Part shown: in pieces, positions 33,970-50,548 of the stretch | How positions within the stretch are numbered: position 1 is the stretch's first letter | Layout of the letters: every line of letters starts with the position of its first letter | From: a bacterium | Lineage (GTDB): Bacteria > Hydrothermota > Tepidihabitantia > Tepidihabitantales > Tepidihabitantaceae | Reading direction: 5' to 3' | DNA length: 64,000 bases | NCBI GenBank assembly: GCA_039793395.1 | Contig: JBAMLV010000022.1 | Location: 2,897-66,896, forward strand | Position numbers and translations under genes: made by a program | The notes under the pieces: generated by a model | Told to the model about the DNA's origin: nothing | The model's input: only the letters and a program-made list of their open reading frames with translations | Databases searched by the model: none

Positions 33970-34292
33970 CCCGGGGGAAGATTTGCCCGTTGGTCCCGGG
34001 TTTGACCCGGACCGCGGAGCGGACACCGGTTAGCACGAGCAAGGGGGATTTTAACTACTGGCTGAGAGCTGGGTTAATCGGCTGGCTCAGTCCGGTGATA
34101 AAACACCGGTAGAGTTCCGGAACTAACTTTACCCTCACCGTTACCACCGGCACAAATCCCGGTTCCGGGACAGGACCGACAACAGTACGGGGGCTAGCCC
34201 CGGGCTTGCCCCCTGATTTGGCGTCCATATTGATAACCACTTGATTTTCAGAATGATAACCACCGGACCACCAAGGAACAATCCGTGCACAG

Positions 34293-34310
34293 TTGTGCAA
34301 CAATGCACAA
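34293..34310. promoter_or_regulatory. 18-bp perfect palindrome TTGTGCAACAATGCACAA (candidate operator upstream of the hdr cluster)
   Basis: Read directly from the sequence. An extra TGCACA half-site lies at 34286-34291. The shape TTGTGxA-N4-TxCACAA resembles Rex/CRP-FNR-type operators. Confidence 0.35.
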
Positions 34311-34381
34311 ATTGTAATTATGCGTTTGCCACTGGCGACCGCCGCTTGTGGATTGCGAGACGCGCTTCTTGGCAAATTTTC

Positions 34382-34409
34382 TTGACTTTGAATTTATCTG
34401 AGTTATCAT
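34382..34409 (+). promoter_or_regulatory. Putative promoter of the hdr cluster (TTGACT-N16-TATCAT)
   Basis: TTGACT at 34382-34387 and TATCAT at 34404-34409. The ATG at 34421 is 11 nt downstream, with no SD. Confidence 0.45.
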
Positions 34410-34420
34410 TTTTTCTTGCG

Positions 34421-34813
34421 ATGAATTCAGCGGCGAACTCCTCCCTGGTTTCCCGAATTGAGGAATTGAGCGGGCAGCGGGTGCTGGACTGTTATCAGTG
34501 CGGGTGCTGTACTGCTGGCTGTCCGATTGGCGAGTTGATGGACCCCGCGCCGAGTAAGGCAATCCGGCTGTTGCAGCTGGGACGGGCAGAAGAGTTGCTG
34601 GCAAGTGAAGGTATCTGGTTGTGTGCCAGTTGTCTGGTGTGCGGGACGAGGTGTCCGCGGAATGTTGATTATGCAAAGATTGCCGAGGCATGCCGGGCAA
34701 TTGTCCTGCGGGCAAAGCGGAGTGTGGTTGACCCGGACCGGGTCAGCCCTGAGCAGTTGCAGGATATACCCCAGCAGGCATTCATTGCCAGTTTCCGGAA
34801 GTTTTCGGTATGA
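34421..34813 (+). CDS. hdrC: Heterodisulfide reductase subunit C (HdrC-like, 2x[4Fe-4S])
   Basis: CYQCGCCTAGCP and CASCLVCGTRCP motifs; 130 aa from ATG 34421. The ORF-track start at 34241 precedes the predicted promoter. Confidence 0.85.
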   Translation: MNSAANSSLVSRIEELSGQRVLDCYQCGCCTAGCPIGELMDPAPSKAIRLLQLGRAEELLASEGIWLCASCLVCGTRCPRNVDYAKIAEACRAIVLRAKRSVVDPDRVSPEQLQDIPQQAFIASFRKFSV

Positions 34814-35673
34814 AGTATCCTTATTATCCTGGCTGTACGCTCTATTCCAAGGCGAGAAATCTTGACCAGTGTGCCCGGAAAGCCGCGCTCCGTGCCGGTT
34901 TTGAACTGGAGGAGATGCCATCCTGGAACTGTTGCGGTGCCATTTACAATACCAATACCGATGACCTGGCGGCGCAGGTTGGACCGGTGCGCAATCTGGC
35001 AAAGGCAAGTCAACTGGGCGAGCGGCTGGTGACGCTGTGTGCCGCCTGTTATAATGTGCTGAAGCGGGCAAGTGAGCACCTGCAGGCAACCGGTTTTGAA
35101 GCGGACCGGCAGCGACTTTTGGATTTTGTTGATGAGCCGTTGATCCGGGATGTGGAGGTGGTGCATTATCTACAGGTGTTGAAGGAGCTGGGCTGGGAAG
35201 GGCTGCGGGCAAAGGTGGCCAAGCCGCTGAACGGGTTGAAGATTGCCTCCTATTACGGCTGTCTGATGGTGCGGCCAAAGGAGGTGTTGAAGTTTGATGA
35301 CCCGGAAAATCCAATGGTGATGGATGAGCTGGTGGCGGCGCTGGGCGGAACACCGGTGCGGTTTGATTTCAAGAGCGAGTGCTGCGGCGGCTATCTCGTG
35401 GTCAATCATCAGGCGGTGGCTGATGCCTGTTCGCTGCGGGTGGTGGAGAATGCCCGGACCTGGGGCGCAGAACTGGTGGTGACCACCTGTCCACTGTGTC
35501 AGTATAATCTGGAGATGGCTCAGCGGCGCCGGTCTTCCGGGAATCAGTTAGTGCCGGTGCTTTATTTTACTCAGGTGCTGGGACTGGCACTGGGTCTGGC
35601 AGAAGCGGAGTTGGGGTTTGATGATAACCGGCTGGACCCGCGCCCGTTTCTTTTGACCAGGGGGTTGCTGTAA
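34810..35673 (+). CDS. hdrB: Heterodisulfide reductase subunit B (two CCG domains)
   Basis: Two CCG-domain signatures: SWNCCGA...LCAACYN and SECCGGY...TCPLCQYN. ATGA overlap with hdrC. Confidence 0.9.
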   Translation: MKYPYYPGCTLYSKARNLDQCARKAALRAGFELEEMPSWNCCGAIYNTNTDDLAAQVGPVRNLAKASQLGERLVTLCAACYNVLKRASEHLQATGFEADRQRLLDFVDEPLIRDVEVVHYLQVLKELGWEGLRAKVAKPLNGLKIASYYGCLMVRPKEVLKFDDPENPMVMDELVAALGGTPVRFDFKSECCGGYLVVNHQAVADACSLRVVENARTWGAELVVTTCPLCQYNLEMAQRRRSSGNQLVPVLYFTQVLGLALGLAEAELGFDDNRLDPRPFLLTRGLL

Positions 35674-35675
35674 AG

Positions 35676-37619
35676 ATGGCACGGTCGCGGGTCGGGGTTT
35701 TTGTCTGTCACTGCGGGATTAACATTGCGGGTGTGGTCCGGGTGCCGGAGCTGGTGGAGCGGGTAAAGACAATTCCCGGGGTGGTGAGTGCGCTGGATTA
35801 TGTTTACTGCTGTTCCGACCCGGGGCAGCAACTGATTAAGCAGACGATTAAGGACAAGGGGCTGGACGGAGTGGTGGTGGCGTGCTGTTCGCCGAATCTG
35901 CACGAGGCGACCTTCCGGAAGGCAGCGGCTGAAGCGGGGTTGAATCCGTATCGGTGTGAGATTGCCAACATCCGGGAGCAGTGTTCCTGGGTAACTGCGG
36001 ACCGGGATGCGGCAACCGAGAAGGCGGAAGGGATTGTCCGGACGATGGTGGCAAAGGTGCGGGAGGATGTACCGCTTTTCCGGTTGCAAGTGCCGCTGGT
36101 CAAGCGGGCGCTGGTGGTGGGTGCGGGTATTGCCGGGATTCAGGCGGCACTGGACATTGCCAATGCGGGTTATGAGGTGGTTTTGGTGGAGAAGGAGCCG
36201 TCAATCGGTGGGCATATGGCGCAGCTTTCCGAGACCTTTCCGACGCTTGACTGTTCCCAGTGCATTCTGACTCCAAAGACGGTTGAAGCGGGCAATCACC
36301 CGCGGATTAAACTCCTGACCTATTCCGAGGTGCTGGAGGTTTCGGGGTTCATCGGCAATTTCCGGGTGAAAATCCGGCAGAAGCCACGTTATGTTGATCT
36401 TGATGCCTGCACCGGCTGCGGTATCTGTCTGGAAAAGTGTCCGGTCAGGGTGGAGTCCGGGTTTGACCGCAATCTGACCCGGCGCCGGGCAATCTACCGG
36501 CTGTTTCCCCAGGCGGTACCGAATAAGGTGGTGATTGATGCCGAGCACTGCCGGCAGTTGCAGGGCAAGAGGTGCGGGGTTTGTGAGCGGGTTTGTCCGG
36601 CGCAGGCGATTCGGTATGAAGATACCGGGCGGATTATTGAGGAGGAGGTGGGGGCGATTGTGCTGGCGACCGGCTATGAGCTGTTTGACATTTCCCGGGT
36701 TGGTTCCTATGGGGCAGGGGTGGTGCCGGATGTGATTGACAGTCTGGCGTTTGAAAGGATTCTTTCGGCATCGGGTCCGTTTGCGGGTGAGGTGCGCCGG
36801 CCTTCGGACGGCAGAGTTCCGAAGCGGGTGGTTTTTGTGCAGTGCGCCGGCTCCCGGGACGCAAATCAGGGGGTGCCCTACTGCTCAAAAATCTGCTGTA
36901 TGTATACCGCGAAGCATGCCCTGCTTTACAAGCACCGGGTGCATGATGGTGAGGCAATTGTCTGTTATATTGATGTCCGGACTCCGGGCAAGGGTTTTGA
37001 GGAGTTCTATCGCCGGGCAACCGATGAAGGGGTTAAATACCTGCGGGGTAAGGTTGCCAAGATTTTCCGGCGCGCCGACCGGGTGGTGGTCTGGGCAGCG
37101 GATACGCTGGCGGGTAAAAAGATTGAGATTGAGGCTGATATGGTGGTCCTGGCAAGTGCGGTAATTCCCAATCCGAAGGGGGTGGAGCTGGCACGGCGGT
37201 TGAAGATTGCTCTTGATGCCCATGGCTTTCAGTCGGAGGCACATCCGAAGCTGCGGCCGGTTGAGACTTTGACCGCGGGCTTCTTTCTTGCCGGCTGTGG
37301 TCAGGGACCGAAGGACATTCCGGAGACGGTGGCACAGGCTTCAGGTGCGGCGGCAAAGGTGCTGGCGATGTTCGGTACGAGTGAGCTGTATCATGAACCG
37401 GTGATTGCCGAGGTGGATGAGGAGGTTTGCGTTGGCTGTGGTAATTGCGAGCGGAGCTGCGCCTATGAGGCGGTGAAGGTTGATGTCCGGCGCGGTAAGG
37501 CGGTGGTGCAGGCGGTGATGTGTGAAGGGTGTGGTGCATGTTCGGTTGCCTGTCCGGCCGGGGCAATTAACCTCAAGAATTTTACCAAGCGGGCGCTGAT
37601 TGAGATGGTGGATGTGTGA
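35676..37619 (+). CDS. hdrA: Heterodisulfide reductase subunit A (canonical-length HdrA flavoprotein)
   Basis: N-terminal VFVCHCGINIAG domain, FAD fold VVGAGIAGIQAALDIA, TFPTLDCSQCILTPK, an inserted ferredoxin (CTGCGICLEKCP) and a C-terminal 2x[4Fe-4S] domain (CVGCGNCERSC, CEGCGACSVACP). Confidence 0.9.
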   Translation: MARSRVGVFVCHCGINIAGVVRVPELVERVKTIPGVVSALDYVYCCSDPGQQLIKQTIKDKGLDGVVVACCSPNLHEATFRKAAAEAGLNPYRCEIANIREQCSWVTADRDAATEKAEGIVRTMVAKVREDVPLFRLQVPLVKRALVVGAGIAGIQAALDIANAGYEVVLVEKEPSIGGHMAQLSETFPTLDCSQCILTPKTVEAGNHPRIKLLTYSEVLEVSGFIGNFRVKIRQKPRYVDLDACTGCGICLEKCPVRVESGFDRNLTRRRAIYRLFPQAVPNKVVIDAEHCRQLQGKRCGVCERVCPAQAIRYEDTGRIIEEEVGAIVLATGYELFDISRVGSYGAGVVPDVIDSLAFERILSASGPFAGEVRRPSDGRVPKRVVFVQCAGSRDANQGVPYCSKICCMYTAKHALLYKHRVHDGEAIVCYIDVRTPGKGFEEFYRRATDEGVKYLRGKVAKIFRRADRVVVWAADTLAGKKIEIEADMVVLASAVIPNPKGVELARRLKIALDAHGFQSEAHPKLRPVETLTAGFFLAGCGQGPKDIPETVAQASGAAAKVLAMFGTSELYHEPVIAEVDEEVCVGCGNCERSCAYEAVKVDVRRGKAVVQAVMCEGCGACSVACPAGAINLKNFTKRALIEMVDV

Positions 37620-37632
37620 GGGGAAGCGGGAG

Positions 37633-40600
37633 ATGGGCGATAATGGCAATCTGAATTCGGCGGTTCCGGTGACGGAAGCCAGGGTCGGGGCGGTGCTGGT
37701 GGTCGGTGCCGGCATTGCCGGGATACAGTCGGCACTGGAACTGGCAGAGTCCGGGTTCAAGGTTTATCTTATGGATTCGGCACCCGCGATTGGCGGGGTG
37801 ATGGCGATGCTGGACAAGACCTTTCCGACGAATGACTGCTCAATGTGTATTTTGAGCCCGAAACTGGTCGGCACGGGCCGGCATCCGAATATTGAACTGC
37901 TCAACGGCGCGGAGCTGCTCGGTCTGGAAGGGGAGCCGGGCAACTTCACCGCCCGGGTCCGGCAGCGGCCCAGGTATGTGTTGCTGGAGAAGTGCACCGG
38001 TTGTATGGACTGCACCAAGGTGTGTCCGGTCCGGGTGCCGGATAGTTACAATCAGGGGCTTGCTATGCGGGGTGCGGTTTACAAGCTTTTTGCCCAGGCA
38101 ATTCCGAATGCAGTGGCAATTGACAAGAATGAACGCCGGGCACCGTGCCGGCTTGCCTGTCCGGCAGAGGTGAATGCCCAGGGTTATATTGCCCTGACCC
38201 GCGCCGGTAAGTTCAAGGAGGCTTATCAACTGGTGCGCGAGCGCCTGCCGTTTGTGGGTGTGTGCGGCCGGGTGTGCCATCATCCCTGCGAGGAGAATTG
38301 CAACCGCCGGAAGTTTGATGCCGAGAGTCCGGTTGCCATCAGGACAATCAAGCGGTTTCTTGCCGATTATGTGGCAAAACAGGGCGGACTGCCGTATTCG
38401 GTGCCGGAAAGGCAGGGGGAGAGTGCGGCGCGGGTGGCAGTTATCGGTGCCGGACCAGCAGGCTTGACCTGTGCGCTGGATTTGCGGCTGAAGGGTTATG
38501 AGGTGACGGTTTTTGAGGCGGCAGAGCAGCCGGGCGGAATGATGCGCTGGGGTATCCCAGCTTACCGGCTGCCCCGGGCGGTGCTGGACCAGGAGATTAA
38601 GGATATTCTTGATACCGGTATTGAACTGAAGTTGAACTCGCCCATTAATGACCCGGCCGAACTCAAGCGTCTGCTGGCGCAGGGGTATCGGGCAGTTTTT
38701 ATTGCCATCGGTGCCAGCCGGAGCCGGACCTTGAACATTCCGGGGATGGAGTTGAAGGGGGTGCTGCACGGCATTGAGTTTCTCCGGGAGGTAAATCGCG
38801 GGGCAGTGCCGGCAATCGGCAGGCGGGTGGTGGTTATTGGCGGTGGTAATGTGGCGGTGGATGTAGCGATGTGTGCGCGGCGGTGCGGTGCCGAAGCGGT
38901 GACGATGGTCTGTCTGGAAAAACGGGATGAGATGCCTGCCCATCCGTGGGAGATTGAGGAGGCGCTCGCCGAGGGAATAAAAATAATGCCCGGCTGGGGT
39001 CCGGCCGCAATCCGGGGTGAGGATGGTGCGGTTGCCGGACTTGAGACCATAGAGTGCACGAGCGTTTTTGATGAGCAGCACCGGTTCAATCCCCAATTCA
39101 ATCCGGATAACCGGGGCTTTGTCCCGGCAGAGACGGTAATTCTGGCAATCGGTCAGCAGGTGGCTTTACCCTTTGCTTCGTTCCAGGTTGACCCGGTGAC
39201 CCTGGAGGTAAAGGGAATGCCCGGGGTGTTTGCCGGCGGTGATATGGTGTCCGGTCCCGCTTCGGTGATTGAGGCGGTTCAGGCTGGCCATGAAGCGGCA
39301 ATTTCCATTGACCGGTTCATCCGGAAAGAGGATTTGAGCGCCGGCAGGCAAAAGCCAAAACCGGAACCGGCACGGCTTGAGGATTCTGCTGGTTATCGCA
39401 TCGGTATCAAACCCCAGGCGCGGACAAAGGAGCCGGTGCTGAACCCGGAGCAACGGCAGAACTGGGATGAGCTGAATTTAGGTTTTGATGAAGAGCAGGC
39501 ACAGGCTGAAGCCCAGCGGTGTCTGGATTGCGGTATCTGCTCGGAATGTTTTCAGTGTGTGAGTGCGTGTGAAGCCCGGGCAATTGACCACCAGCAGCAG
39601 GAAAGGCAGCTGGAACTGAAGGTGGGGGCGGTTATTCTTGCTGGCGGGTTTAGCGAGCACAAGCCGGTTGCCGATGTCAGTCTCGGTTATGCTCAACACC
39701 CGAACATCGTTACCAGTCTGGAGTTTGAGCGGATTCTTTCGGCAACCGGTCCTTATGAAGGCCAGGTGCGCCGGCCGTCAGATTTAACTCCGCCGAAGAA
39801 GGTCGCCTGGGTGCAGTGTGTCGGTTCCCGGAATCAGGAGCATTATTACTGCTCATCGGTCTGCTGTATGTTTGCGGTCAAGGAGGCGGTCATCGCCAAG
39901 GAGCACTGCGGTGGGGAGCTGGATTGTCACATCTACTATCTGGATATGCGCTGTTTTGGCAAGGGTTTTGAACGGTATTATGAACGGGCAAAAAATGAGT
40001 ATGGGGTGGTGTTCCGGCGTTCGCGGGTGAGTGCAATCCGGGCAGTGCCGGAAACCGGCGACCTCTTGATTGCGTATGAGGATGAGCAGGGCGTGCTACA
40101 TGATGAGGTTTACAATCTGGTGGTGCTGTCCAGTGCCCTGGTGGCAAATCCGGAGATGGTGGCGCTGTGTGAGCGGCTGGGAGTCAAAGTTGACCCTCAG
40201 GGGTTTGTCCAGACCTCAGCTCTTTATCCGGTGGCGACCTCCCGGGCTGGAGTTTTTGCCTGTGGTGTGCTGACCGAGCCCAAGGATATTCCGGAAACGG
40301 TCACCGAAGCAACCGGCTGCGCCGGTGCGGTTGCCGGACTTTTGAGCACCGTCCGAAATACGCTGGTGAGCAGGAAGAGTTATCCGCGGGAGCGGGATGT
40401 TACGGAAGAAGAGCCGCGGGTCGGAGTTTTTGTGTGCAACTGCGGTATCAACATCGGCGGGGTGGTGCGCGTGCCCGAAGTGGTGGAGTATGCCCGAACC
40501 CTGCCCGGGGTGGTTTATGCCGAAGAAAATCTGTTCACCTGCTCGCAGGATACCCAGGAGAAAATCAAGCGGATTATTCAGGAGCAGCGGTTGAACCGGG

Positions 40601-42117
40601 TGGTGGTTGCCTCCTGCACTCCGCGGACCCATGAGCCGCTATTTCAGGAGACGCTGGCGGAAGCGGGTTTGAACCGGCACCTGTTTACGATGGCAAATAT
40701 CCGGGACCAGTGTTCCTGGGTTCATATGCATCTGCCCCAGGAGGCGACCGCGAAAGCCAAGGAGCTGGTGCGGATGGCGGTTGCCAATGCCCGGCACCTG
40801 AAACCGCTTACCGCTGCTCAATCGCCGGTGGTGCAGAAGGCGCTGGTGGTCGGGGGTGGCATTGCCGGAATGACCGCCGCACTGGCAATTGCGGAGCAGG
40901 GGTTTGAGGTGTTTTTGGTGGAAAGGGAAAAGGAACTGGGTGGTAATCTGCGCCGGGTGCGATATGATGAGGCGGGAAATCGGACCGCGGATATTGTTGC
41001 GCGGCTGGAAAACCGGCTGCGTTCCCATCCGAAAGTCAGGATTCTGACCGGTGCGGAAATCAGTGCGGTCAGCGGTTATGTGGGCAATTATCGGACCACG
41101 GTCCGGTTTACAGGCGCTGAGCGGTCACCGGAAGAGACTTTAGAGCACGGTGTTTTTGTGGTGGCGGTTGGGGCAAGGGAGTATGTGCCTAAAGAATATT
41201 TCTATGGTGAAGACAGCCGGGTTTTGACCCAGCTGGAGCTGGAAAATCTGATTGAAACCCAGCCCGATTTTCTTGCCCGGACTGCCGGGACCGCGGGTGC
41301 AAATAAACCGTCCAGCCCGACAGTGGTGATGATTCAGTGCGTCGGGTCAAGGAATGAGGAGCATCCCTGGTGCTCCCGGGTTTGTTGCACTGAGGCGGTT
41401 AAGAATGCACTCCGGCTGAAGAAGGAGTATCCGAATGTTCAGGTGTATATTTTTTACCGGGATATGCGCACCTACGGGTTCCGGGAAGGACTTTATCGCG
41501 AAGCCCGGCGTGCCGGGGTGCTATTTATTCATTATGAGCCCGGGGAATTGAAGGTTGAACGCCGGGACGGGAAAATTTTGGTTTCCGGTTATGACCCGGT
41601 GCTGGCAGGCCGGGTGGGGGTGGTAGCCGATTATCTGGTGCTTTCAACCGGCATCGTGCCCGCGGAGTCCAATCCGCAACTGGCGAAACTGCTCAAGGTG
41701 CCGTTGAATGAGGACGGTTTCTTTCTGGAAGCACATATGAAATTGAGGCCGGTGGATTTTAACACCGCCGGGATTTTTATGGCTGGCACCGCTCACAGCC
41801 CCCGTTTTATTTCCGAGACCATTGCGCAGGCACTGGCAGCCGCGGCACGCGCGGGTTCACTTATCAGTTCAACCCGGATTATGACTTCCGCGGTGGTGGC
41901 ACGGGTGAATACCCGCTGGTGTGCAGGTTGCGGTGTGTGTGAGCGGGTGTGTCAGTATGAGGCGGTTCGGCTCAACCCGGAAACCGGTAAATCAGAAGTT
42001 ACCGCGGTTTTGTGCCAGGGGTGCGGTGCCTGTGCTGCCGCCTGTCCCGCCGGTGCAATTGAGCTGGCGGGGTTTGAATCCCGGCAACTGCTTTCAATCG
42101 TGGAGGAGGCGTTGTAA
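37633..42117 (+). CDS. Giant HdrA-type fusion: HdrA core with a nested GltD/NfnB-like NAD(P)H module, followed by a second HdrA-like module (large-HdrA, HdrL-like architecture)
   Basis: Module 1 has VGAGIAGIQSALELA, TFPTNDCSMCILSPK and CTGCMDCTKVCP. The nested GltD-like block has CGRVCHHPCEENC, VAVIGAGPAGLTCALDL and VVVIGGGNVAVDVA. The HdrA core then resumes (LEFERILSATGPYEGQVRRPSD, CSSVCCMFAVKEAV). Module 2 has VFVCNCGINIGG and VVGGGIAGMTAALAIA, with C-terminal CAGCGVCERVC and CQGCGACAAACP. ATG 37633 is preferred. Confidence 0.8.
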   Translation: MGDNGNLNSAVPVTEARVGAVLVVGAGIAGIQSALELAESGFKVYLMDSAPAIGGVMAMLDKTFPTNDCSMCILSPKLVGTGRHPNIELLNGAELLGLEGEPGNFTARVRQRPRYVLLEKCTGCMDCTKVCPVRVPDSYNQGLAMRGAVYKLFAQAIPNAVAIDKNERRAPCRLACPAEVNAQGYIALTRAGKFKEAYQLVRERLPFVGVCGRVCHHPCEENCNRRKFDAESPVAIRTIKRFLADYVAKQGGLPYSVPERQGESAARVAVIGAGPAGLTCALDLRLKGYEVTVFEAAEQPGGMMRWGIPAYRLPRAVLDQEIKDILDTGIELKLNSPINDPAELKRLLAQGYRAVFIAIGASRSRTLNIPGMELKGVLHGIEFLREVNRGAVPAIGRRVVVIGGGNVAVDVAMCARRCGAEAVTMVCLEKRDEMPAHPWEIEEALAEGIKIMPGWGPAAIRGEDGAVAGLETIECTSVFDEQHRFNPQFNPDNRGFVPAETVILAIGQQVALPFASFQVDPVTLEVKGMPGVFAGGDMVSGPASVIEAVQAGHEAAISIDRFIRKEDLSAGRQKPKPEPARLEDSAGYRIGIKPQARTKEPVLNPEQRQNWDELNLGFDEEQAQAEAQRCLDCGICSECFQCVSACEARAIDHQQQERQLELKVGAVILAGGFSEHKPVADVSLGYAQHPNIVTSLEFERILSATGPYEGQVRRPSDLTPPKKVAWVQCVGSRNQEHYYCSSVCCMFAVKEAVIAKEHCGGELDCHIYYLDMRCFGKGFERYYERAKNEYGVVFRRSRVSAIRAVPETGDLLIAYEDEQGVLHDEVYNLVVLSSALVANPEMVALCERLGVKVDPQGFVQTSALYPVATSRAGVFACGVLTEPKDIPETVTEATGCAGAVAGLLSTVRNTLVSRKSYPRERDVTEEEPRVGVFVCNCGINIGGVVRVPEVVEYARTLPGVVYAEENLFTCSQDTQEKIKRIIQEQRLNRVVVASCTPRTHEPLFQETLAEAGLNRHLFTMANIRDQCSWVHMHLPQEATAKAKELVRMAVANARHLKPLTAAQSPVVQKALVVGGGIAGMTAALAIAEQGFEVFLVEREKELGGNLRRVRYDEAGNRTADIVARLENRLRSHPKVRILTGAEISAVSGYVGNYRTTVRFTGAERSPEETLEHGVFVVAVGAREYVPKEYFYGEDSRVLTQLELENLIETQPDFLARTAGTAGANKPSSPTVVMIQCVGSRNEEHPWCSRVCCTEAVKNALRLKKEYPNVQVYIFYRDMRTYGFREGLYREARRAGVLFIHYEPGELKVERRDGKILVSGYDPVLAGRVGVVADYLVLSTGIVPAESNPQLAKLLKVPLNEDGFFLEAHMKLRPVDFNTAGIFMAGTAHSPRFISETIAQALAAAARAGSLISSTRIMTSAVVARVNTRWCAGCGVCERVCQYEAVRLNPETGKSEVTAVLCQGCGACAAACPAGAIELAGFESRQLLSIVEEAL
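38128..39516 (+). other. GltD/NfnB-like (glutamate synthase small-subunit-type) domain inserted within the inserted-ferredoxin domain of HdrA module 1
   Basis: Boundaries come from aligning the 1494-aa protein by eye with its 1007-aa paralogue. Similarity stops after ...AIPNAVAIDK and resumes at RCLDCGICSECFQCVSACEARAIDH. Confidence 0.65.
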
Positions 42118-42536
42118 TGAGTTTTGAACCGAAAATAGTCGGATTTCTCTGCAACTGGTGTACCTATGCGGGTGCAGACCTGGCAGGGACATCAAGAATT
42201 CAATATCCACCAAATATGAGGCCCATCCGGGTGATGTGCTCTGGAGCGGTCGATTCGGTTTATATCCTGCGGGCACTGCTTGAGGGCGCGGATGGAGTGT
42301 TCATCGGTGGCTGTCATCCCGGTGACTGCCATTATGTATCCGGCAATTACAAAACCCGGCGCCGGATGGTGCTGTTCAACTCCATTATGCGGTCGCTGGG
42401 CCTGGATGAAGGCCGGGTGCTAGTGCGCTGGATTTCAGCGGCTGAAGGCAAGAAGTTTGCCGATACGGTAACCGAGCTGACCGAGCGGCTCAGACAGCTG
42501 GGACCGAGTCCATTCCGCCATCTCTGGGAGGTGTGA
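42117..42536 (+). CDS. mvhD: MvhD/FlpD-type [2Fe-2S] electron-transfer subunit
   Basis: FLCNWCTYAGADLAG, CSGAVD and GCHPGDCHY motifs; 139 aa. TAATG overlap with the upstream gene. Confidence 0.85.
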   Translation: MSFEPKIVGFLCNWCTYAGADLAGTSRIQYPPNMRPIRVMCSGAVDSVYILRALLEGADGVFIGGCHPGDCHYVSGNYKTRRRMVLFNSIMRSLGLDEGRVLVRWISAAEGKKFADTVTELTERLRQLGPSPFRHLWEV

Positions 42537-42537
42537 T

Positions 42538-43677
42538 TTGGCAGCGAGCGTATTCATTAAAGTTCTAACAGATAATCCGCAGCAGACATTGCGCGGGATT
42601 TATGCCCGGTGGCTGAAAACCGGCGAACTATCGGCACTGCTGGTGCCGGCAGTTTCGGCGACCGGGGTTGCGGCACCGGTGCTTTTTTCCGACCCGGAAA
42701 AGGTGGCAATGGTCAGTCCACTGCTGCCGGTAATGGCGGTCAACAGTGCATCAATTGTTGCGGAGATTGCGGCCGAGCGGGCAACCGAAACCCGGGTGGG
42801 GGTGGTGTTGCGTCCCTGTGAAATGCGGGCGGTGGTGGAGTTGATTAAACTGCAGCAGATCGTCCGGGAAAATCTGGTGCTGATCGGGATTGACTGTCCG
42901 GGGACATACCTGCCGGCGGTGCTCGGTCCGGAGCTGGTTGAGGACCGTGGTAAACTGGATGAATGGGTGATTGAGTTCGTTAGCGGTCAGGACCGCTATT
43001 TTGAGGATGAACGGTTGCGCAGTGCCTGCCAGATGTGTGAATTTCCAACATCGCTGGTTGCCGACCTGAAAATCGGGTTTTTAGGGTTGAATGTAAGGGA
43101 AAGGCTGCTTTTGAGTCCGGTTTCTGAAGCCGGGAGCCGGCTGGTTGCGGGACTGGAAACTGAACCGGCAGCGGAGAATATTCCGGAGCGGAGTGGCTAT
43201 CTGGACCGGTTTGTGCAGTCCCGGAAAAGCCGGGCGGAACAGCGGATTGCCGATTTTGACCGGGTCGGTCTGGGACCGGAGAATCTGGTCCGTTATTTTG
43301 CCCGCTGTCTTAACTGTCATAACTGTATGAAGGTTTGTCCGGTCTGTTATTGCCGGGAGTGTTTCTTTGAATCGGATGTGTTCCAGCGAGAGCAGGATGA
43401 ATATGTCCGGCGGTCAAAAAGGAAAGGGCTTAACCGGATGCCGGCCGGAACGCTTTTGTTTCATCTGACGCGAATGAATCATATGATGACCTCCTGCGTC
43501 CAGTGCGGGATTTGTGAGGATTCCTGTCCAGCAGGAATCGGTTTGAGTGTGCTGTTCAAGAAGGTTGCCCGCAATGCCCAGGCGGCATTTGATTATCTTT
43601 CCGGTCGGTCGCTTGATGAGCCGTTGCCACTCACTACCTTCCGGGAGGATGAGTTCCGGGAAATTGGCGAGGAGTAG
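42538..43677 (+). CDS. Fe-S protein with a 2x[4Fe-4S]-like C-terminal region; the N-terminal domain is possibly FrhB/FdhB-like
   Basis: C-terminal CLNCHNCMKVCPVCYCRECFFE and CVQCGICEDSCPAG. The N-terminal VLRPCEMRAVVELIKLQ ... LIGIDCPGTY pattern is reminiscent of FrhB/FdhB-family proteins, but that assignment is not secure. TTG start with GGAGG 6 nt upstream. Confidence 0.45.
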   Translation: MAASVFIKVLTDNPQQTLRGIYARWLKTGELSALLVPAVSATGVAAPVLFSDPEKVAMVSPLLPVMAVNSASIVAEIAAERATETRVGVVLRPCEMRAVVELIKLQQIVRENLVLIGIDCPGTYLPAVLGPELVEDRGKLDEWVIEFVSGQDRYFEDERLRSACQMCEFPTSLVADLKIGFLGLNVRERLLLSPVSEAGSRLVAGLETEPAAENIPERSGYLDRFVQSRKSRAEQRIADFDRVGLGPENLVRYFARCLNCHNCMKVCPVCYCRECFFESDVFQREQDEYVRRSKRKGLNRMPAGTLLFHLTRMNHMMTSCVQCGICEDSCPAGIGLSVLFKKVARNAQAAFDYLSGRSLDEPLPLTTFREDEFREIGEE

Positions 43678-43683
43678 CGCCCA

Positions 43684-44343
43684 ATGGCAGAACTGCTGTT
43701 AAATGAACTGGACACGAGTTTTAAGTACCGGATTGCGGAACGGATGGGCGATGACAGTTTTCTCAACTGCTTTGCCTGCGGTTCCTGCACCGCCTCCTGT
43801 CCGGTGCGCCGGCTGGAGGGAAAATATAATCCGCGCCGGCTGATCCGGATGGCAATCTTGGGGATGAAGGATGAGGTGTATAAATCGGAATTTCTCTGGC
43901 TCTGTTCCTACCATTCTACCTGTCTTTACCGCTGTCCGCAGAAGGTGAACATCGGCGCGGTCAGCGATGCGGTGAGCCGGCTCAAGCAGCAGGCGGGCAA
44001 AAGTGGCTGGCCCGATGGTATCAGCACCGAGTTCCGCCGGGCGGTGGTGCGTGAGGTTCCCGGAGTAAGCGCCTGTTTTGTCTGTGGTTCCTGCACCGCG
44101 GTTTGTCCGGAAAGTTTTCTTGACCCGGCAAATGACCCGCGGAAATTTATCCGTAAGGTCAATCTCGGGCTGGCAAGGGCGGCGCTCAGCGATGAGTTCA
44201 AGGATATCTGTGCCACTCATTTCCGGTGTGAAAGCCGGTGCCCCCAGGGGGTTAAAATCAGCCGGGTGATGCAGGTCCTGCGCGAGCTGGCACTGGAAGA
44301 TGGTTATTCATTGCCGGAATCAATCCGGTTTCTCCGGGAATAG
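43684..44343 (+). CDS. Tandem (duplicated) HdrC-like Fe-S protein with a Cys-to-His variant second motif
   Basis: Two HdrC-like halves: CFACGSCTASCP + CSYHSTCLYRCP, and CFVCGSCTAVCP + CATHFRCESRCP. No adjacent CCG-domain partner. Confidence 0.7.
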   Translation: MAELLLNELDTSFKYRIAERMGDDSFLNCFACGSCTASCPVRRLEGKYNPRRLIRMAILGMKDEVYKSEFLWLCSYHSTCLYRCPQKVNIGAVSDAVSRLKQQAGKSGWPDGISTEFRRAVVREVPGVSACFVCGSCTAVCPESFLDPANDPRKFIRKVNLGLARAALSDEFKDICATHFRCESRCPQGVKISRVMQVLRELALEDGYSLPESIRFLRE

Positions 44344-44345
44344 TT

Positions 44346-47300
44346 ATGGTGAATGAACCGCAGTTAAACGGTGTCCTCGTTATCGGGGGCGGAATCGGCG
44401 GGGTGCAGGCAGCACTGGATCTGGCTGAGGCGGGCAGGAAGGTTTATCTGGTAGAACGGGCACCCGCGATTGGCGGCTATATGGCGATGCTGGACAAAAC
44501 CTTTCCTACCAATGACTGCTCAATGTGTATCCTCAGTCCGAAACTGGTCAGCTGTGCCCGTCATCCGAACATTGAACTGCTGACGCTCAGCGAAGTGGTT
44601 GCCACCGCCGGCGAACCGGGCAACTTTTTGGTGAAAGTCCGGCGCTATGCCCGTTCGGTTGACCTTTCCCGGTGCACCGGCTGTGGTGACTGCCTGGAAA
44701 AGTGTCCGGTGAAAGTGCCCAGCGAGTTTGAGGGTGGACTGGCGCAGCGCCGGGCAATCTATCGTCTGTATGCCCAGGCTGTGCCCAATGCCCCCGTAAT
44801 TGACCGTCAGCACTGCCTTAAATTTACCAAGGACCGTTGTGGCAACTGTGCCCGGGTGTGCAAAGCCGGGGCGATTGATTACCGGCAGGATGATGAGGAG
44901 ATTGAAATCCGGGTCGGAGCAATCATTATTGCCGCCGGGAGCAAGATTTTTAACCCGGCGGTGCGGCCGGAGTTTGGCTATAAAAGGCTCGCCAATGTGG
45001 TGACCGCGCTGGAGTTTGAACGCATCCTCTCGGCATCCGGACCATACGGGGGCAGGGTCAAGCGGCCAGGAGACGGTGCGGAGCCGAAGAAGATCGCCTG
45101 GGTTCAGTGCTTCGGTTCCCGTGACGAGACAATTGGAAGCAGTTACTGCTCTTCGGTTTGCTGTATGTATGCCGCCAAGGAGGCGGTTATCGCCCGGGAG
45201 CACAATCCCGATATTGAGCCGACCGTTTTTTATATGGATATGCGTGCCTATGGCAAGGAGTTTGACCGTTATATTGAAAGGGCAGAAAGGCAATATGGGG
45301 TCCGGTTTGTGCGGGCACGGGTTGCTGAAATTCTGGAAGACCGGTTGACCGGCAGGCTGATTGTCCGTTATGCCGGTGATAATGGTCAACAGGCAGAAGG
45401 GTTTGACCTGGTGGTGCTTTCCTGTGGTCTGGTGCCAGAACCGGCGACCGGTTTGACCGTTGAACACAACCGGTTTGGTTTTCCACTGACCGACCTGATT
45501 GAACCGGTGAACGCTTCCCGGCGCGGGATATTTATCGCCGGCAGTTGTGCCCAACCGGTTGCCATTCCGGAAACCGTGACCGCGGCATCAGCAGCTGCGG
45601 TCAAGGCGCTGCCACTTACCGTTCCCGCGTCCCGGCGGTTCCAGCCAGAAGCAAGCCAAAAGGAAATCAATGTCGCCGGCATTGCCCCGCGAATCGGAGT
45701 TTTTGTCTGTAACTGCGGCATCAATATCGGCGGGGTGGTGCGTGTGCCCGAGGTGGTGGAGTATGCCCGGACCCTGCCCGGGGTGGTCTTTGTTGAGGAA
45801 AACCTTTATTCCTGTTCAGCTGATACTCTTGAGAAAATCAAGTCCCGGATAAAGGAACAAAACCTCAACCGGGTGGTGGTGGCTTCCTGTTCGCCGCGGA
45901 CCCATGAGCCGCTGTTTCAGGCAACCCTGAGCGAGGCGGGCTTGAATCCCCATCTGTTGGCGATGGCAAACATCCGGGACCAGTGTTCCTGGGTTCATCC
46001 GGACCGGGACCAGGCAACCGTCAAGGCAAAGGACCTGGTGAAAATGGCAGTGGCACGGGTTCGGCGTCAGCAGCCGCTGGCACCGGTCCGACTGCCGGTA
46101 ACCAAAGCCGGGCTGGTCGTGGGCGGCGGGATTGCCGGATTGGCAGCGGCGCGGGCGCTGGCAGATTCCGGGGTGGATGTTTTGCTGATCGAACGGGAAG
46201 CGGTGCTGGGTGGTGTGGCACGCCAGATTTACCGGACAATTGAAGGCGAAGATGTCCAGCAACGGCTGAACTCGTTGATTGAACAGGTTACCAATCATCC
46301 CCGAATCAGAGTTTATACCGGTGCCGAAATCAGAAGGGTTGACGGATTTGTCGGCTCGTTTGAGACCACGATTGCGGTCGCCGGCCGCGAAGAGCGATTT
46401 CGTCACGGGGTGGTGATTGTGGCGGTCGGAGCACAGTATCGCCAGCCAACAGAATATCAGTTTGGCAGTGACCCGCGGGTGCGGACCCAGCAGGAACTGG
46501 AAGAGATAATTGCCCGGCGGCCGGATGAGCTGCACAATCTCCACTCGGTGGTTATGATTCAATGTGTCGGCTCGCGTGAAGGGGAGCGGAACTACTGTTC
46601 GCGAATCTGTTGTGCCGAGGCGATTAAAAACGCCCTCGCCATTAAAAATCTGAACCCGGACTGTGAGGTATTCATTCTGTATCGGGATATCCGGACCTAT
46701 GGTTTCCGGGAGGAGTATTACCGTCAGGCAAGAGAACTGGGGGTGATATTTATCCGTTATGAAGTGGAGCGCAAACCGCAGGTGCAGGTGGCTGACAACG
46801 GTTTAACTGTGCAGGTTCACGAACCGGTGCTCGGACTTCCCCTGACACTCAAGCCGGACCTGCTGGTGCTTTCCACCGGCGTTGAGCCGCAGCCGGATGC
46901 CGAGCGGCTGGCACAAATGCTGAAGGTGCCACGGCAGCAGGATGGGTTCTTCCTTGAGGCGCACGCCAAGCTGCGGCCGGTTGATTTTGCCACCGAAGGT
47001 GTTTTTCTTGCCGGGCTGTGTCACTATCCTGAATTTATTGACGAGACCATCGCCTCGGCTCAAGCCGCGGCCGGTCGGGCTGCCACGGTGCTGGCACGGG
47101 ATTTTATTGAAGCCGAGCCCTATCAGGCGGTGGTTTCGCCTGAGCGCTGTTCCGCCTGCGGAATGTGTGCTGGATTATGTGCCTATCGGGCAATTGAAGT
47201 CCGGGTTGTTGAAGAGCGGACCGGGAAACGGGCAGCGGTGGTTAATCAGGCGATGTGTAAAGGGTGCGGCGCCTGTGCGGCAAACTGCCGGTCCGAAGCC

Positions 47301-47369
47301 ATTGACATCCGCGGGTTTGCCGCCGAAAATATCTGTCGGGAAATTGCCACGCTGTTCAGTGAATCTTAA
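44346..47369 (+). CDS. HdrA-HdrA tandem fusion flavoprotein (paralogue of the 1494-aa gene without the GltD insertion)
   Basis: Module 1 has VIGGGIGGVQAALDLA, TFPTNDCSMCILSPK, CTGCGDCLEKCP and CSSVCCMYAAKEAV. Module 2 has VFVCNCGINIGG, VVGGGIAGLAAARALA and CSRICCAEAIKNAL, with C-terminal CSACGMCAGLC and CKGCGACAANC. Confidence 0.8.
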   Translation: MVNEPQLNGVLVIGGGIGGVQAALDLAEAGRKVYLVERAPAIGGYMAMLDKTFPTNDCSMCILSPKLVSCARHPNIELLTLSEVVATAGEPGNFLVKVRRYARSVDLSRCTGCGDCLEKCPVKVPSEFEGGLAQRRAIYRLYAQAVPNAPVIDRQHCLKFTKDRCGNCARVCKAGAIDYRQDDEEIEIRVGAIIIAAGSKIFNPAVRPEFGYKRLANVVTALEFERILSASGPYGGRVKRPGDGAEPKKIAWVQCFGSRDETIGSSYCSSVCCMYAAKEAVIAREHNPDIEPTVFYMDMRAYGKEFDRYIERAERQYGVRFVRARVAEILEDRLTGRLIVRYAGDNGQQAEGFDLVVLSCGLVPEPATGLTVEHNRFGFPLTDLIEPVNASRRGIFIAGSCAQPVAIPETVTAASAAAVKALPLTVPASRRFQPEASQKEINVAGIAPRIGVFVCNCGINIGGVVRVPEVVEYARTLPGVVFVEENLYSCSADTLEKIKSRIKEQNLNRVVVASCSPRTHEPLFQATLSEAGLNPHLLAMANIRDQCSWVHPDRDQATVKAKDLVKMAVARVRRQQPLAPVRLPVTKAGLVVGGGIAGLAAARALADSGVDVLLIEREAVLGGVARQIYRTIEGEDVQQRLNSLIEQVTNHPRIRVYTGAEIRRVDGFVGSFETTIAVAGREERFRHGVVIVAVGAQYRQPTEYQFGSDPRVRTQQELEEIIARRPDELHNLHSVVMIQCVGSREGERNYCSRICCAEAIKNALAIKNLNPDCEVFILYRDIRTYGFREEYYRQARELGVIFIRYEVERKPQVQVADNGLTVQVHEPVLGLPLTLKPDLLVLSTGVEPQPDAERLAQMLKVPRQQDGFFLEAHAKLRPVDFATEGVFLAGLCHYPEFIDETIASAQAAAGRAATVLARDFIEAEPYQAVVSPERCSACGMCAGLCAYRAIEVRVVEERTGKRAAVVNQAMCKGCGACAANCRSEAIDIRGFAAENICREIATLFSES

Positions 47370-47392: not shown

Positions 47393-47833
47393 ATGGCGGA
47401 TAGTACCCGGAATCACCGTTACCGGCTGCGGGAACACACCGCCGACCTGAAGGTAGAAATTTATGGGCGGGATTTACCAGAGCTTTTTGTCAATGCCGCC
47501 TTCATGATTTTTGATGTGATGCTGGAGCTGGATCAAGTTGTTGAACAACAGGTGGAGACGGTGGAAATTAAATCGGCCGATTTGCCGGAATTGTTATTGG
47601 ACTGGCTCCGGGAACTGCTGTTTCTTTTTTCGGTGCGCGGTTTTGTCTGCCGGCAGGTGCGGATTTCGAGGCTGAGTTCCAAACCGGCAGAGCTGGAGGC
47701 GCTGCTTGCCGGCGAAACTTACGACCCCAAACGCCACGGGTTGAAAATTGAAATCAAGACACCGACCTATCATCAGTATGCGGTTGAAAGATTGCCCGAG
47801 GGCTACCGGGCGACGGTAGTATTTGATGTATAA
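47393..47833 (+). CDS. Archease
   Basis: YRLREHTADLKVEIYGRDLPELFVNAAFMIFDVM matches the archease N-terminal signature (EHTAD...G); 146 aa. Confidence 0.8.
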   Translation: MADSTRNHRYRLREHTADLKVEIYGRDLPELFVNAAFMIFDVMLELDQVVEQQVETVEIKSADLPELLLDWLRELLFLFSVRGFVCRQVRISRLSSKPAELEALLAGETYDPKRHGLKIEIKTPTYHQYAVERLPEGYRATVVFDV

Positions 47834-49006: not shown

Positions 49007-49505
49007 TGCCGGTCTCCTTTTTAGTTTTTTGTTTAATCCCGGTTATCAATTCATAGATTATAATTAAAATTACTCCGATAACAACGAAGGCATCGGCAAG
49101 ATTGAAGGTAAACCACCGGAAATTTAGTCTTTTGATTCCAACATCTATAAAATCAATAACATAACCAAGTCGGAGGCGGTCAATCAGATTGCCGAGCGCA
49201 CCACCGAGGATTATTCCATAAGCACACCCGAGATAGGTGTTCAGGGTTTTAAATCCCAGTGCCAGCACAAGGAGAATGCCCATCAACTGGAGGGCGAAAT
49301 GAAGCCAGCCGGCGCCGAATGATATTCCGAAGACACCATAAGGGTTAGTAGTGTATGAAATTTTCAGAAAGTCGCCAATCAGGCGAATGGAAAGTGGAGC
49401 GCCCGGCTGGTTGAAGAGGCCGTAAACAATGGTTTTGGTCAACTGGTCAAAAAATAGCGCCAGGATAGCAGTCCAGACAAAAGAACGGCGCAGTGCAGCG
49501 GTCAT
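48960..49505 (-). CDS. lspA: Lipoprotein signal peptidase (signal peptidase II)
   Basis: GGALGNLIDRL and FNLADAFVVIG motifs, with four predicted TM segments. The 3' tail overlaps the nifS start. Confidence 0.9.
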   Translation of the reverse strand: MTAALRRSFVWTAILALFFDQLTKTIVYGLFNQPGAPLSIRLIGDFLKISYTTNPYGVFGISFGAGWLHFALQLMGILLVLALGFKTLNTYLGCAYGIILGGALGNLIDRLRLGYVIDFIDVGIKRLNFRWFTFNLADAFVVIGVILIIIYELITGIKQKTKKETGNENACISGQQLHNPD

Positions 49506-50455: not shown

Positions 50456-50477
50456 AGCTTCCTCCAGCAGCGGATTC

Positions 50478-50505
50478 ATTATAATGCAAATCAGAGCGGA
50501 GTCAA
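50478..50505 (-). promoter_or_regulatory. Putative promoter (TTGACT-N16-TATAAT) of the Zn-ribbon/lspA/nifS operon
   Basis: Minus-strand read: TTGACT (50505-50500), 16 nt, TATAAT (50483-50478), followed by a ~22-nt leader containing GGAGG. Confidence 0.55.
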
Positions 50506-50548
50506 TCAAAATTTGTTAACCAAAATTCCGGGGAAAATGGCATTAAGA

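Follow-up and report, generated by a model that had tools for sequence, protein, structure and literature searches.

HdrL of a candidate division WOR-3 bacterium: a GltD-like cassette nested in the inserted ferredoxin domain of a fused double HdrA

Complexes based on HdrA rank among the main flavin-based electron-bifurcating systems of anaerobes. What does it mean for such a complex if one of its HdrA proteins carries a second flavoprotein inside its own ferredoxin domain? The question is raised by hdrL, a gene for a 1494-residue protein on a 64 000-nucleotide stretch of bacterial DNA (the window; positions 2,897 to 66,896 of contig JBAMLV010000022.1, assembly GCA_039793395.1). The listed homologue that is 100% identical to HdrL (P0001) comes from a candidate division WOR-3 bacterium. 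According to the original prediction, made from the letters alone, a GltD/NfnB-like module for reduced nicotinamide adenine dinucleotide (phosphate) (NAD(P)H) sits within an HdrA core, so that two bifurcation-competent flavins would be wired together in one polypeptide. We find the module nested as predicted; its type, however, appears to be a different one, and a role as a plain NAD(P)H port seems fairly probable to us.

A GltD-like module inside the inserted ferredoxin domain of HdrA

Pairwise alignment of HdrL with its 1007-residue paralogue from the same operon showed that the two proteins are collinear over residues 1-165 and that collinearity resumes at the second ferredoxin motif (around residue 636); between these points HdrL has about 470 additional residues. 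Within this insert Pfam recognises Fer4_20 (169-250) and Pyr_redox_2 (267-552), and the NCBIfam model PRK12771 matches HdrL 166-670 (profile positions 44-548 of 566) with 547 bits, above its cutoff of 516. In a phmmer search of the PDB the insert matched GltD-like modules with E values of 1.7e-96 to 5e-83 and thus far beyond chance, while HdrA models match on either side of it. An AlphaFold2 model of HdrL 1-925, built with 60 homologues, had a predicted local distance difference test score (pLDDT) of 88.9 and a predicted template modelling score (pTM) of 0.85, with pLDDT values of 91-96 across both junctions. In Foldseek this model gave alignments of 488-533 columns with GltD-like modules and of 894 columns, bridging the insert, with HdrA chains (template modelling score 0.94 when normalised to an HdrA chain of 428 residues). 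As the hidden Markov model matches, the structural model and Foldseek agree, the GltD-like block is nested in HdrA's inserted ferredoxin domain and not terminal, and its motifs are not degenerate: those for flavin adenine dinucleotide (FAD) and for NAD(P)H are intact in all 120 listed homologues. The insertion separates the two CxxCxxCxxxC motifs of the ferredoxin domain (motif 1, C121-C131; motif 2, C636-C646), also as predicted, and all motifs quoted in support of the prediction are present in the translation (CGRVCHHPCEENC, VAVIGAGPAGL, GGMMRWGIPAYRLP and VVVIGGGNVAVD). Only one detail had to be corrected. The insert had been placed at 38128-39516 (residues 166-628); its 5' boundary stands, but the 3' boundary moves to 39537 (residue 635), because the segment NWDELNLGFDEEQAQAEAQ-RC630LDC633 is a permuted 'N-terminal' piece that belongs to the GltD module. 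HdrA's second ferredoxin motif thus comprises only C636-SE-C639-FQ-C642-VSA-C646, which aligns with CxxCxxCxxxC of 5odc_A and with C-x8-CxxCxxxC of the paralogue.

An assembly or fusion artefact was ruled out: the 55 closest of the 120 listed homologues (63-100% identical), from WOR-3 and unclassified bacterial metagenome-assembled genomes (MAGs), have the same length within about 60 residues. The remoter ones come from Aerophobetes, a Cloacimonas-like MAG and Thermoplasmatota. Recent gene conversion between HdrL and the paralogue was likewise rejected, DNA identity being at most 81% and confined to short stretches. One protein stretch in the N-terminal-type cluster domains of the two paralogues (40417-40725 versus 45687-45998) is almost identical, against 53% identity of the whole proteins, while the DNA is 81% identical, which argues for strong constraint and not for recent conversion.

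The HdrA part of the protein is itself double. FAD-domain hallmarks of HdrA occur twice, as GAGIAG with C729/C740/C744/C745 and as GGGIAG with QCVGSRNEEHPWCSRVCC, and HdrL matches 5odc_A with E = 4e-183. Core 1 contains C72, which corresponds to Cys197 of the structurally characterised HdrA (5odc numbering; TFPTNDCSxC; 119/120 homologues retain C69 and C72), and the inserted ferredoxin domain, and is without the N-terminal and C-terminal domains. Core 2 is preceded by an N-terminal cluster domain (926-1060) and followed by a C-terminal ferredoxin domain, and is without Cys197 and the inserted ferredoxin domain. Thus the full four-domain set of HdrA was not found in one unit; the domains are divided complementarily between the cores of HdrL. 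The cutoffs of the NCBIfam HdrA equivalogs are not reached either (NF040770 HdrA2, 950 bits, cutoff 1100; NF041778, 701 bits, cutoff 1400), and HdrL appears to be a derivative of the HdrA family and not an equivalog. Complementary domain loss between HdrA cores has been interpreted as a built-in heterodimer (Chadwick et al. 2022, PMC9012536), and HdrL is most likely a pseudo-heterodimer of two HdrA units fused in a single chain, with an NAD(P)H port hard-wired into it. In classical HdrA one branch leads to HdrBC, and the other reaches ferredoxin by way of the N-domain cluster and the inserted ferredoxin domain (PMC9012536); being nested in the latter domain, the cassette of HdrL is attached to the classical ferredoxin outlet.

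Type of the module and its cluster ligands

Which kind of GltD module has been inserted? Over the common residues (about 395), the cassette scores 307 bits against Thermococcus NfnA of the Bfu type and 221 bits against Thermotoga maritima NfnB (phmmer). Whole matches reach 327, 318 and 283 bits for Bfu-NfnA and StnC, 231, 213 and 203 bits for NfnB, Xfn and NfnL, and about 170 bits for GltD. The Foldseek ranking is the same, with Bfu-NfnA and StnC ahead and NfnB and NfnL at ranks 12-13. The best matches in both sequence and fold are therefore StnC of the Sporomusa ovata StnABC complex (8oh5_C) and NfnA of Bfu-type NfnABC (9bov_A, 9n5u_A).

The order of the segments points in the same direction. 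The NfnB motif RCx2Cx4Cx3CPV is contiguous (PMC6405883); looked for ahead of the GltD body of HdrL, such a contiguous N-terminal motif was not found. Instead the motif is interrupted within its x4 spacer, with PC172xxxC176P at the start of the module and RC630xxC633, about 460 residues further on, at its end; after two more residues C636-x2-C639-x2-C642-x3-C646 follows. Accordingly, residues 11-42 of T. maritima NfnB (..FEEVALGYTLEEALEEAQRCLQC; pattern ..EEAxxEAxRCLxC) align to HdrL 603-633, downstream of the GltD body, and NfnB 46-459 to HdrL 171-563, whereas the order in HdrL is collinear with that in StnC and Bfu-type NfnA (alignments to 9bov_A and 8oh5_C at 65-545 to 96-575). The cassette starts with an Fe-S part (169-250; C172, C176, C215, C219, C223 and K240), continues with the FAD/NAD(P)H part (267-552; GAGPAG, R312, GGGNVA, C427-L-E429 and GGD) and ends, after a linker, with the permuted segment 601-635 that carries RC630LDC633.

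A further character is the non-cysteine ligand of the FAD-proximal [4Fe-4S] cluster, a lysine in StnC and Bfu-NfnA and a glutamate in NfnL (PMC10482914, PMC11829005, PMC12018979). The glutamate was not found at this position of HdrL. In its place stands K240, within IKRF (LERF in 4ylf_B), whose aligned counterparts are K170 in S. ovata StnC, Lys-170 in Caldicellulosiruptor NfnA and Lys-165 in Thermococcus NfnA and which is a lysine in 119 of 120 homologues. When this ligand was mutated in StnC, activity was lost. The same split was observed in an independent sample of GTDB genomes, where 43 of 49 permuted modules have lysine and 15 of 20 canonical modules have glutamate. Judged by the score ranking over the same residues, the Foldseek ranking, the topology and the Lys/Glu characters, the HdrL cassette thus appears not to be of the NfnB/NfnL type but to be the GltD cassette known from StnC/Bfu-NfnA and PRK12771, circularly permuted and Lys-ligated.

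With NfnB/NfnL of NfnAB (NfnSL; 4ylf_B, 5jca_L) the cassette shares the GltD fold, two [4Fe-4S] clusters, FAD, the nicotinamide site and the arginine near N5. It differs from them in the split and permuted motif, in the lysine for glutamate, in the missing arginine pair for the 2'-phosphate and in the lower scores. The features common to the cassette and StnC/Bfu-NfnA are the circular permutation (body first, then the EA.RCxxC segment), the lysine on the FAD-proximal cluster and the splicing into a larger Fe-S protein. Here it is the host that differs, the ferredoxin domain of HdrA in HdrL as against a NuoG/Fdh-like protein; a NuoG/Fdh-like subunit docking to a HydBC-like flavin mononucleotide (FMN) module was not found as host of the cassette. 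The bifurcating partner in HdrL would be an HdrA FAD, whereas StnC and Bfu-NfnA serve an FMN 'flavobicluster'. Moreover, YRR of StnC/Bfu-NfnA is replaced by C-L-E in HdrL, and C114 of the S. ovata protein by alanine.

Counting ligands, 15 cysteines and K240, but not C211, which varies, are invariant in 119-120 of the 120 homologues and would suffice for four [4Fe-4S] clusters. Two of these would be of the ferredoxin type, bound by motif 1 (C121/124/127/131) and motif 2, and two of the GltD type, bound by C172, C176, C215, C219, C223, C630 and C633 together with K240.

The cassette also exists without HdrA. Free-standing proteins of about 530-600 residues (e.g. P0250 and P0217) consist of ferredoxin motif 1, a permuted GltD body, RCxxC and ferredoxin motif 2; a GltD module inside a 2x[4Fe-4S] ferredoxin is therefore a self-contained unit of the PRK12771 type. 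What is the whole protein there would in HdrL coincide with HdrA's inserted ferredoxin domain, which provides the two ferredoxin halves. In the ancestral cluster motif the two ends of the permuted unit would be separated by only 4 residues, which may make it easy to insert. We think that the permuted, Lys-ligated GltD unit is rather probably a general plug-in cassette; if so, this would explain its recurrent nesting in Fe-S domains, i.e. in HdrA's ferredoxin domain, the NuoG-like part of StnC/Bfu-NfnA and free ferredoxins.

Since P0250 and P0217 exist, such a unit is functional outside HdrA, and the cassette of HdrL might accordingly be a largely independent NAD(P)H:ferredoxin (or polyferredoxin) oxidoreductase, which would use the inserted ferredoxin domain, the ferredoxin site of classical HdrA (PMC9012536, PMC12054007), as docking or exchange point. 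It would then balance the NAD(P)H and ferredoxin pools beside Hdr and would not be an obligatory leg of HdrA bifurcation. However, on both sides only 2-6 residues separate the junctions from cluster ligands, proteins 42-52% identical to HdrL show no variation in the junctions, and the structural model is confident over both of them, which together argues for one continuous wire into the HdrA core. Structure predictions published in 2025 also suggest that the module blocks the access of ferredoxin (PMC12054007). We consider this alternative unlikely, though not negligible.

Electron donor and direction of flow

The functional motifs of the cassette are well preserved: GAGPAG (FAD), GGGNVAVD (nicotinamide Rossmann fold), R312 and GGD are invariant in the 120 homologues. 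One motif has changed. YRR(T/S) of NfnB, StnC and Bfu-NfnA corresponds to C427-L-E429 in HdrL, and C-[LVP]-E is found in 111 of 120 homologues. In the NfnB-type site two arginines bind the 2'-phosphate of NADPH (PMC6405883), and YRR is probably this arginine pair. In the AlphaFold2 model E429 is located two residues past the predicted beta-2 strand (422-427) and 21 residues past A408. This is the position of the classical NAD-selecting acidic residue. C-L-E in place of YRR may thus be taken as a hint, not a demonstration, that the donor is NADH. An argument for NAD+ from GxGxxG versus GxGxxA motifs (PMC12054007) could not be transferred to HdrL, where GxGxxG (GAGPAG) is the FAD site and the nicotinamide motif reads GGGNVA.

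Variation at this site was observed elsewhere too. Nine of the 120 closest homologues retain YRR (P0100, P0101, P0106, P0109, P0111, P0112, P0114, P0116 and P0119), and the C/S-L-E variant occurs also in GltD-like proteins outside HdrL; the nucleotide preference may have switched repeatedly. Archaeal versions of HdrL (P0071-P0091, P0104 and P0108; about 1650 residues; those with a named source from Thermoplasmatota; locus L003:8001-12953) have some 166 extra residues in the cassette behind the equivalent of residue 394. These represent a second, tandem copy of the NAD(P)H Rossmann subdomain, with an NADPH-type YRR in copy 1 and C-[VL]-E in copy 2, and raise the question whether both nucleotides are used.

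The altered 2'-phosphate motif (C-L-E for YRR) could also be expected of a structural or regulatory remnant, e.g. a redox sensor of the NAD(P)H pool without catalytic electron flux, and dead-end cluster branches are indeed known in the related Bfu-NfnA. Yet all ligands of FAD, nicotinamide and the clusters show little or no variation in the 120 homologues and in eight proteins 42-52% identical to HdrL, the architecture is kept across many phyla, and the C-L-E variant is itself conserved (111/120). We give hardly any weight to this possibility.

Our preferred reading, which we regard as fairly probable, is that of an Hdr complex linked to NAD(P)H (probably to NADH), with the cassette as a plain NAD(P)H port and bifurcation or confurcation at an HdrA FAD only. 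A functional proposal of the same kind has been made for archaeal type III HdrA (PMC12054007), and the FAD of StnC/Bfu-NfnA was established as the non-bifurcating end of a wire by cryo-electron microscopy and mutagenesis (PMC10482914, PMC11829005, PMC12018979). The anatomy, the conserved ligands, the affinities and the genes around hdrL are observed; the direction of flow, the nucleotide, the partners and the substrate of HdrB we infer as follows. NAD(P)H, probably NADH, would donate a hydride to the cassette FAD, which would act as an ordinary two-electron/one-electron converter at the end of the wire. Single electrons would run through the two [4Fe-4S] clusters of the cassette (seven cysteines and K240), enter the two clusters of the ferredoxin domain directly and proceed to the flavin/cluster core of HdrA. 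Bifurcation or confurcation would occur at an HdrA FAD only, with HdrBC as the thiol/disulfide branch and MvhD, the FdhB-like protein and the Fe-S proteins of the operon as the remaining branch.

A further alternative concerns the flavin of the cassette. If it bifurcated as in NfnB/NfnL, there would be two sites in one polypeptide, with their low-potential branches arranged head to head via four [4Fe-4S] clusters. This idea is in print for ANME-1 (PMC9012536); it is consistent with the GltD fold common to the cassette and NfnB/NfnL (231/203 bits, Foldseek ranks 12-13), with the conservation of the N5-contacting arginine position R312 and of all FAD motifs, and with the fact that the cassette clusters feed a branch that is low-potential in classical HdrA. 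On the other hand, the proximal cluster has a lysine ligand and no glutamate, and the permuted cassette is nearer to StnC/Bfu-NfnA (307 versus 221 bits), whose FAD is non-bifurcating; a flavin that terminates a single wire cannot bifurcate. Furthermore, no NfnA/NfnS-type partner ([2Fe-2S] plus FAD, FNR-like) was found among the 47 open reading frames (ORFs) of at least 130 residues in the window that were scanned with Pfam, about ten more long ORFs, mostly of the cell-wall cluster at 2.9-13.3 kb, being unscanned; nor was one found in the neighbourhoods of two hdrL homologues. Such a gene could still lie elsewhere in the genome. A second outlet was not found among the same ORFs or in the two neighbourhoods either. 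Because this type of cassette is an NAD(P)H port elsewhere and no second outlet was found nearby, the original inference of two bifurcation-competent flavins is disfavoured. We rate a bifurcating cassette FAD as quite improbable, and a two-stage ('double') machine, in which both the cassette FAD and an HdrA FAD bifurcate within one polypeptide with four shared [4Fe-4S] clusters, as very unlikely.

Several points nevertheless weigh against a cassette that is a plain NADH port. The nicotinamide Rossmann motif GGGNVA has the NADP-like form GxGxxA, in conflict with the hint from C-L-E. R312, the counterpart of the N5-contacting arginine of bifurcating NfnL (R201 in Pyrococcus furiosus numbering), is conserved in 120/120 homologues, and since sequence does not tell whether R312 reaches N5, the cassette FAD may still bifurcate; the equivalent arginine is also conserved in the non-bifurcating StnC/Bfu-NfnA, where it is too distant from N5 (PMC10482914, PMC11829005, PMC12018979). 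If NAD(P)H uses the former ferredoxin outlet, the ferredoxin or low-potential outlet should lie elsewhere, and none was identified. Finally, in agreement with a remark in the original prediction, we found proteomics but no enzymology of any HdrL in the literature searched.

Operon, relatives and distribution

HdrL is encoded in a tightly packed operon on the + strand (34241-47369) with the order hdrC-hdrB-hdrA-hdrL-mvhD-fdhB-like-double hdrC-like-double hdrA (Table 1). We count hdrL from the ATG at 37633 (1494 residues); the NCBI model starts at 37612 (1501 residues). The operon encodes five HdrA-type flavin cores (one in the canonical HdrA, two each in HdrL and in the 1007-residue paralogue), to which the cassette FAD and the FdhB-like flavoprotein are added. 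The latter matches FdhB chains of Hdr complexes in the PDB (7bkb_E, 8rvu_E and 9t1s_M) with E values around 1e-24. Neither an FdhA-type/molybdopterin subunit nor NuoG-, NuoF- or NuoE-like genes were found among the scanned ORFs of the window.

Table 1. Features of hdrL and of its operon; positions refer to the window
Feature	Position	Strand	Basis
hdrC-like, 190 aa, two [4Fe-4S] motifs	34241..34813	+	Pfam Fer4_17/Fer4_8; NCBIfam CoB_CoM_SS_C/HdrC matches below cutoff
hdrB-like, 287 aa, two CCG domains	34810..35673	+	Pfam CCG, 2 stretches; NCBIfam HdrB/SdhE-type matches below cutoff
hdrA, canonical, four-domain, 647 aa	35676..37619	+	residues 2-642 match 5odc_A 2-643 end to end, E = 1.7e-204
hdrL, fused double HdrA with nested GltD cassette, 1494 aa	37633..42117	+	translation, Pfam, NCBIfam
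HdrA#1 FAD domain (thioredoxin-reductase-like), first part; GAGIAG, TFPTNDC69SMC72	37681..37968	+	paralogue and 5odc alignments
Inserted ferredoxin domain, first half (motif 1: C121, C124, C127, C131-P)	37969..38127	+	alignments; conserved in 119/120 homologues
Nested GltD-like cassette, residues 166-635	38128..39537	+	Pfam, NCBIfam, PDB alignments, conservation, model, Foldseek
Inserted ferredoxin domain, second half (motif 2: C636, C639, C642, C646)	39538..39597	+	conserved in 120/120 homologues
HdrA#1 FAD domain, second part; cluster motif QCVGSR...YCSSVCC; not followed by a C-terminal ferredoxin domain	39598..40347	+	alignments
HdrA N-terminal-type [4Fe-4S] domain, between the two cores	40408..40812	+	best HdrA stretch, 926-1098 versus 5odc_A 2-174
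HdrA#2 FAD domain; without Cys197 motif and inserted ferredoxin domain	40822..41877	+	no Cys in corresponding stretches
C-terminal 2x[4Fe-4S] ferredoxin domain	41890..42114	+	Pfam Fer4_9/Fer4_7 at 1430-1476
mvhD, [2Fe-2S] adaptor	42117..42536	+	Pfam FlpD, E = 2e-53; NCBIfam VhuD-type match below cutoff
FdhB/FrhB-like Fe-S flavoprotein, 379 aa	42538..43677	+	Pfam FrhB_FdhB_C; PDB matches 7bkb_E, 8rvu_E, 9t1s_M
Double HdrC-like Fe-S protein, 219 aa	43684..44343	+	Pfam Fer4_8/Fer4_17, twice; NCBIfam HdrC-type match in 2 stretches
Paralogue, fused double HdrA without GltD cassette, 1007 aa	44346..47369	+	53% identity to hdrL

Proteins of this design have been described before. Strittmatter defined HdrL in 2009 as a 'heterodisulfide reductase/glutamate synthase fusion' with mvhD as the next gene (PMC2702500), and a cluster with the same gene set, HdrABC/HdrL of Syntrophobacter fumaroxidans, yields proteins that were abundant by proteomics during sulfate reduction (PMC5947623). 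Chadwick et al. (2022) reported an NfnB-like insertion in the inserted ferredoxin domain of ANME-1 HdrA9-11 and the idea of two bifurcation sites (PMC9012536). The design was named type III HdrA in 2025 (Microbiol Spectr), with NADH proposed as mid-potential donor; from a predicted structure it was suggested that the GltD domain blocks ferredoxin access and that the clusters are repurposed for electrons from NADH (PMC12054007).

The protein studied here has two distinguishing features of HdrL/type III HdrA, namely a GltD-like NAD(P)H/FAD module that lies within an HdrA core's inserted ferredoxin domain, and the neighbouring mvhD and hdrBC. Desulfobacterium autotrophicum HdrL1-3 and S. fumaroxidans Sfum_0824 are likewise large fusions of HdrA with a glutamate synthase small subunit and an NAD(P)H site; as at our locus, mvhD comes next and the genes cluster with hdrABC and an FdhB-like Fe-S protein. 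A Syntrophobacteraceae genome contains an open frame of 1492 residues (stop to stop) that matches both junctions with 46% identity. Compared with these sulfate-reducer and syntroph proteins, HdrL of the window has a WOR-3 host and no selenocysteine, and its operon includes an extra cassette-free double HdrA and a double HdrC-like protein; the older papers on HdrL gave the domain order at the Pfam level only, without nesting or a ligand map. In type III HdrA/HdrA9-11 of ANME-1 and Bathyarchaeota a GltD/NfnB-like domain of about 500 residues interrupts the inserted ferredoxin domain, with NAD(P)H as proposed partner, and the class A9-TRX-C of these archaea has an additional thioredoxin-reductase domain. 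By the published description, HdrL differs from the archaeal proteins in being bacterial and in its domain order (core 1 with cassette, N-domain, core 2, C-terminal ferredoxin).

How widespread is the arrangement? We searched 1.84 billion cluster representatives (50% identity) exhaustively with HMMER, using HdrL 100-720, and sorted the best 150 by phmmer segment mapping, as an earlier sorting by regular expressions had been too strict (56 without recognised body). HdrA sequence on both sides of the module, with the same junctions, is present in at least 49 of these 150 representatives, and an HdrA N-part ahead of the module in about 100; their architectures include that of HdrL itself, a form with a single core and the 'type III' form that starts with the N-domain. 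All ligands are retained in eight sequences 42-52% identical to HdrL. Among the GTDB matches listed, those from Syntrophobacteraceae, Dehalococcoidia, Thermoleophilia, Bacteroidales, Thermotogae and an archaeon cover both junctions, while a contig-truncated Zixiibacteriota locus spans the downstream junction only. The insertion point, for which the original prediction had suggested a search in other genomes, is thus shared by several phyla.

The gene order hdrC-hdrB upstream and mvhD downstream is kept beside the homologues of a Cloacimonas-like bacterium and a Thermoplasmata archaeon. Two GcvH-like proteins of the lipoate-carrier type, fused to response-regulator domains, are encoded beside the hdrL homologues (L001:4387-13103, Cloacimonas-like MAG; L003:5583-6635, Thermoplasmata); L001 contains DsrE and TusA as well, and L003 an LplA-type lipoate-protein ligase. 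This set resembles the sulfur-oxidising sHdr/LbpA systems and hints at a protein-bound dithiol as substrate of HdrB in some lineages. Genes of the GcvH-like, DsrE, TusA or LplA type were not found in the window.

The remaining scanned ORFs of the window are mainly housekeeping genes (MraZ, MraW, Mur ligase, FtsA, FtsZ, MnmG and tRNA synthetases). An archease gene (RtcB-ligase cofactor family; 47393-47833, +) starts on the same strand 24 nt past the stop codon of the double hdrA. The ORF at 49505-50509 (-) joins a TackOD1 domain ('thaumarchaeal output domain 1') to a restriction endonuclease domain of the Mrr type, an unusual pairing for a bacterial genome. GC skew is positive in all 2-kb bins of the window (1-64000), reaching 0.29 within the first 14 kb, and the long ORFs are mostly on the + strand, consistent with a single replichore and strong strand bias.

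The HdrL architecture, and speculation about it, are thus already published and widespread, so that no new category is opened here. What the locus adds is a bacterial (WOR-3) example of HdrL/type III HdrA with a clean operon of hdrCBA, hdrL, mvhD, fdhB-like, hdrC-like and double hdrA genes; the permuted, Lys-type assignment, the four-cluster ligand map and the split between YRR and C-L-E are possibly new details. The donor that is wired to an HdrA complex determines how an organism balances its NAD(P)H, ferredoxin and thiol/disulfide pools. From the ligand map we would expect a row of four [4Fe-4S] clusters, the proximal one being of the Lys type, and a permuted cassette with C-L-E for YRR; the cassette should therefore behave like the non-bifurcating NAD(P)H port of StnC and may prefer NADH.

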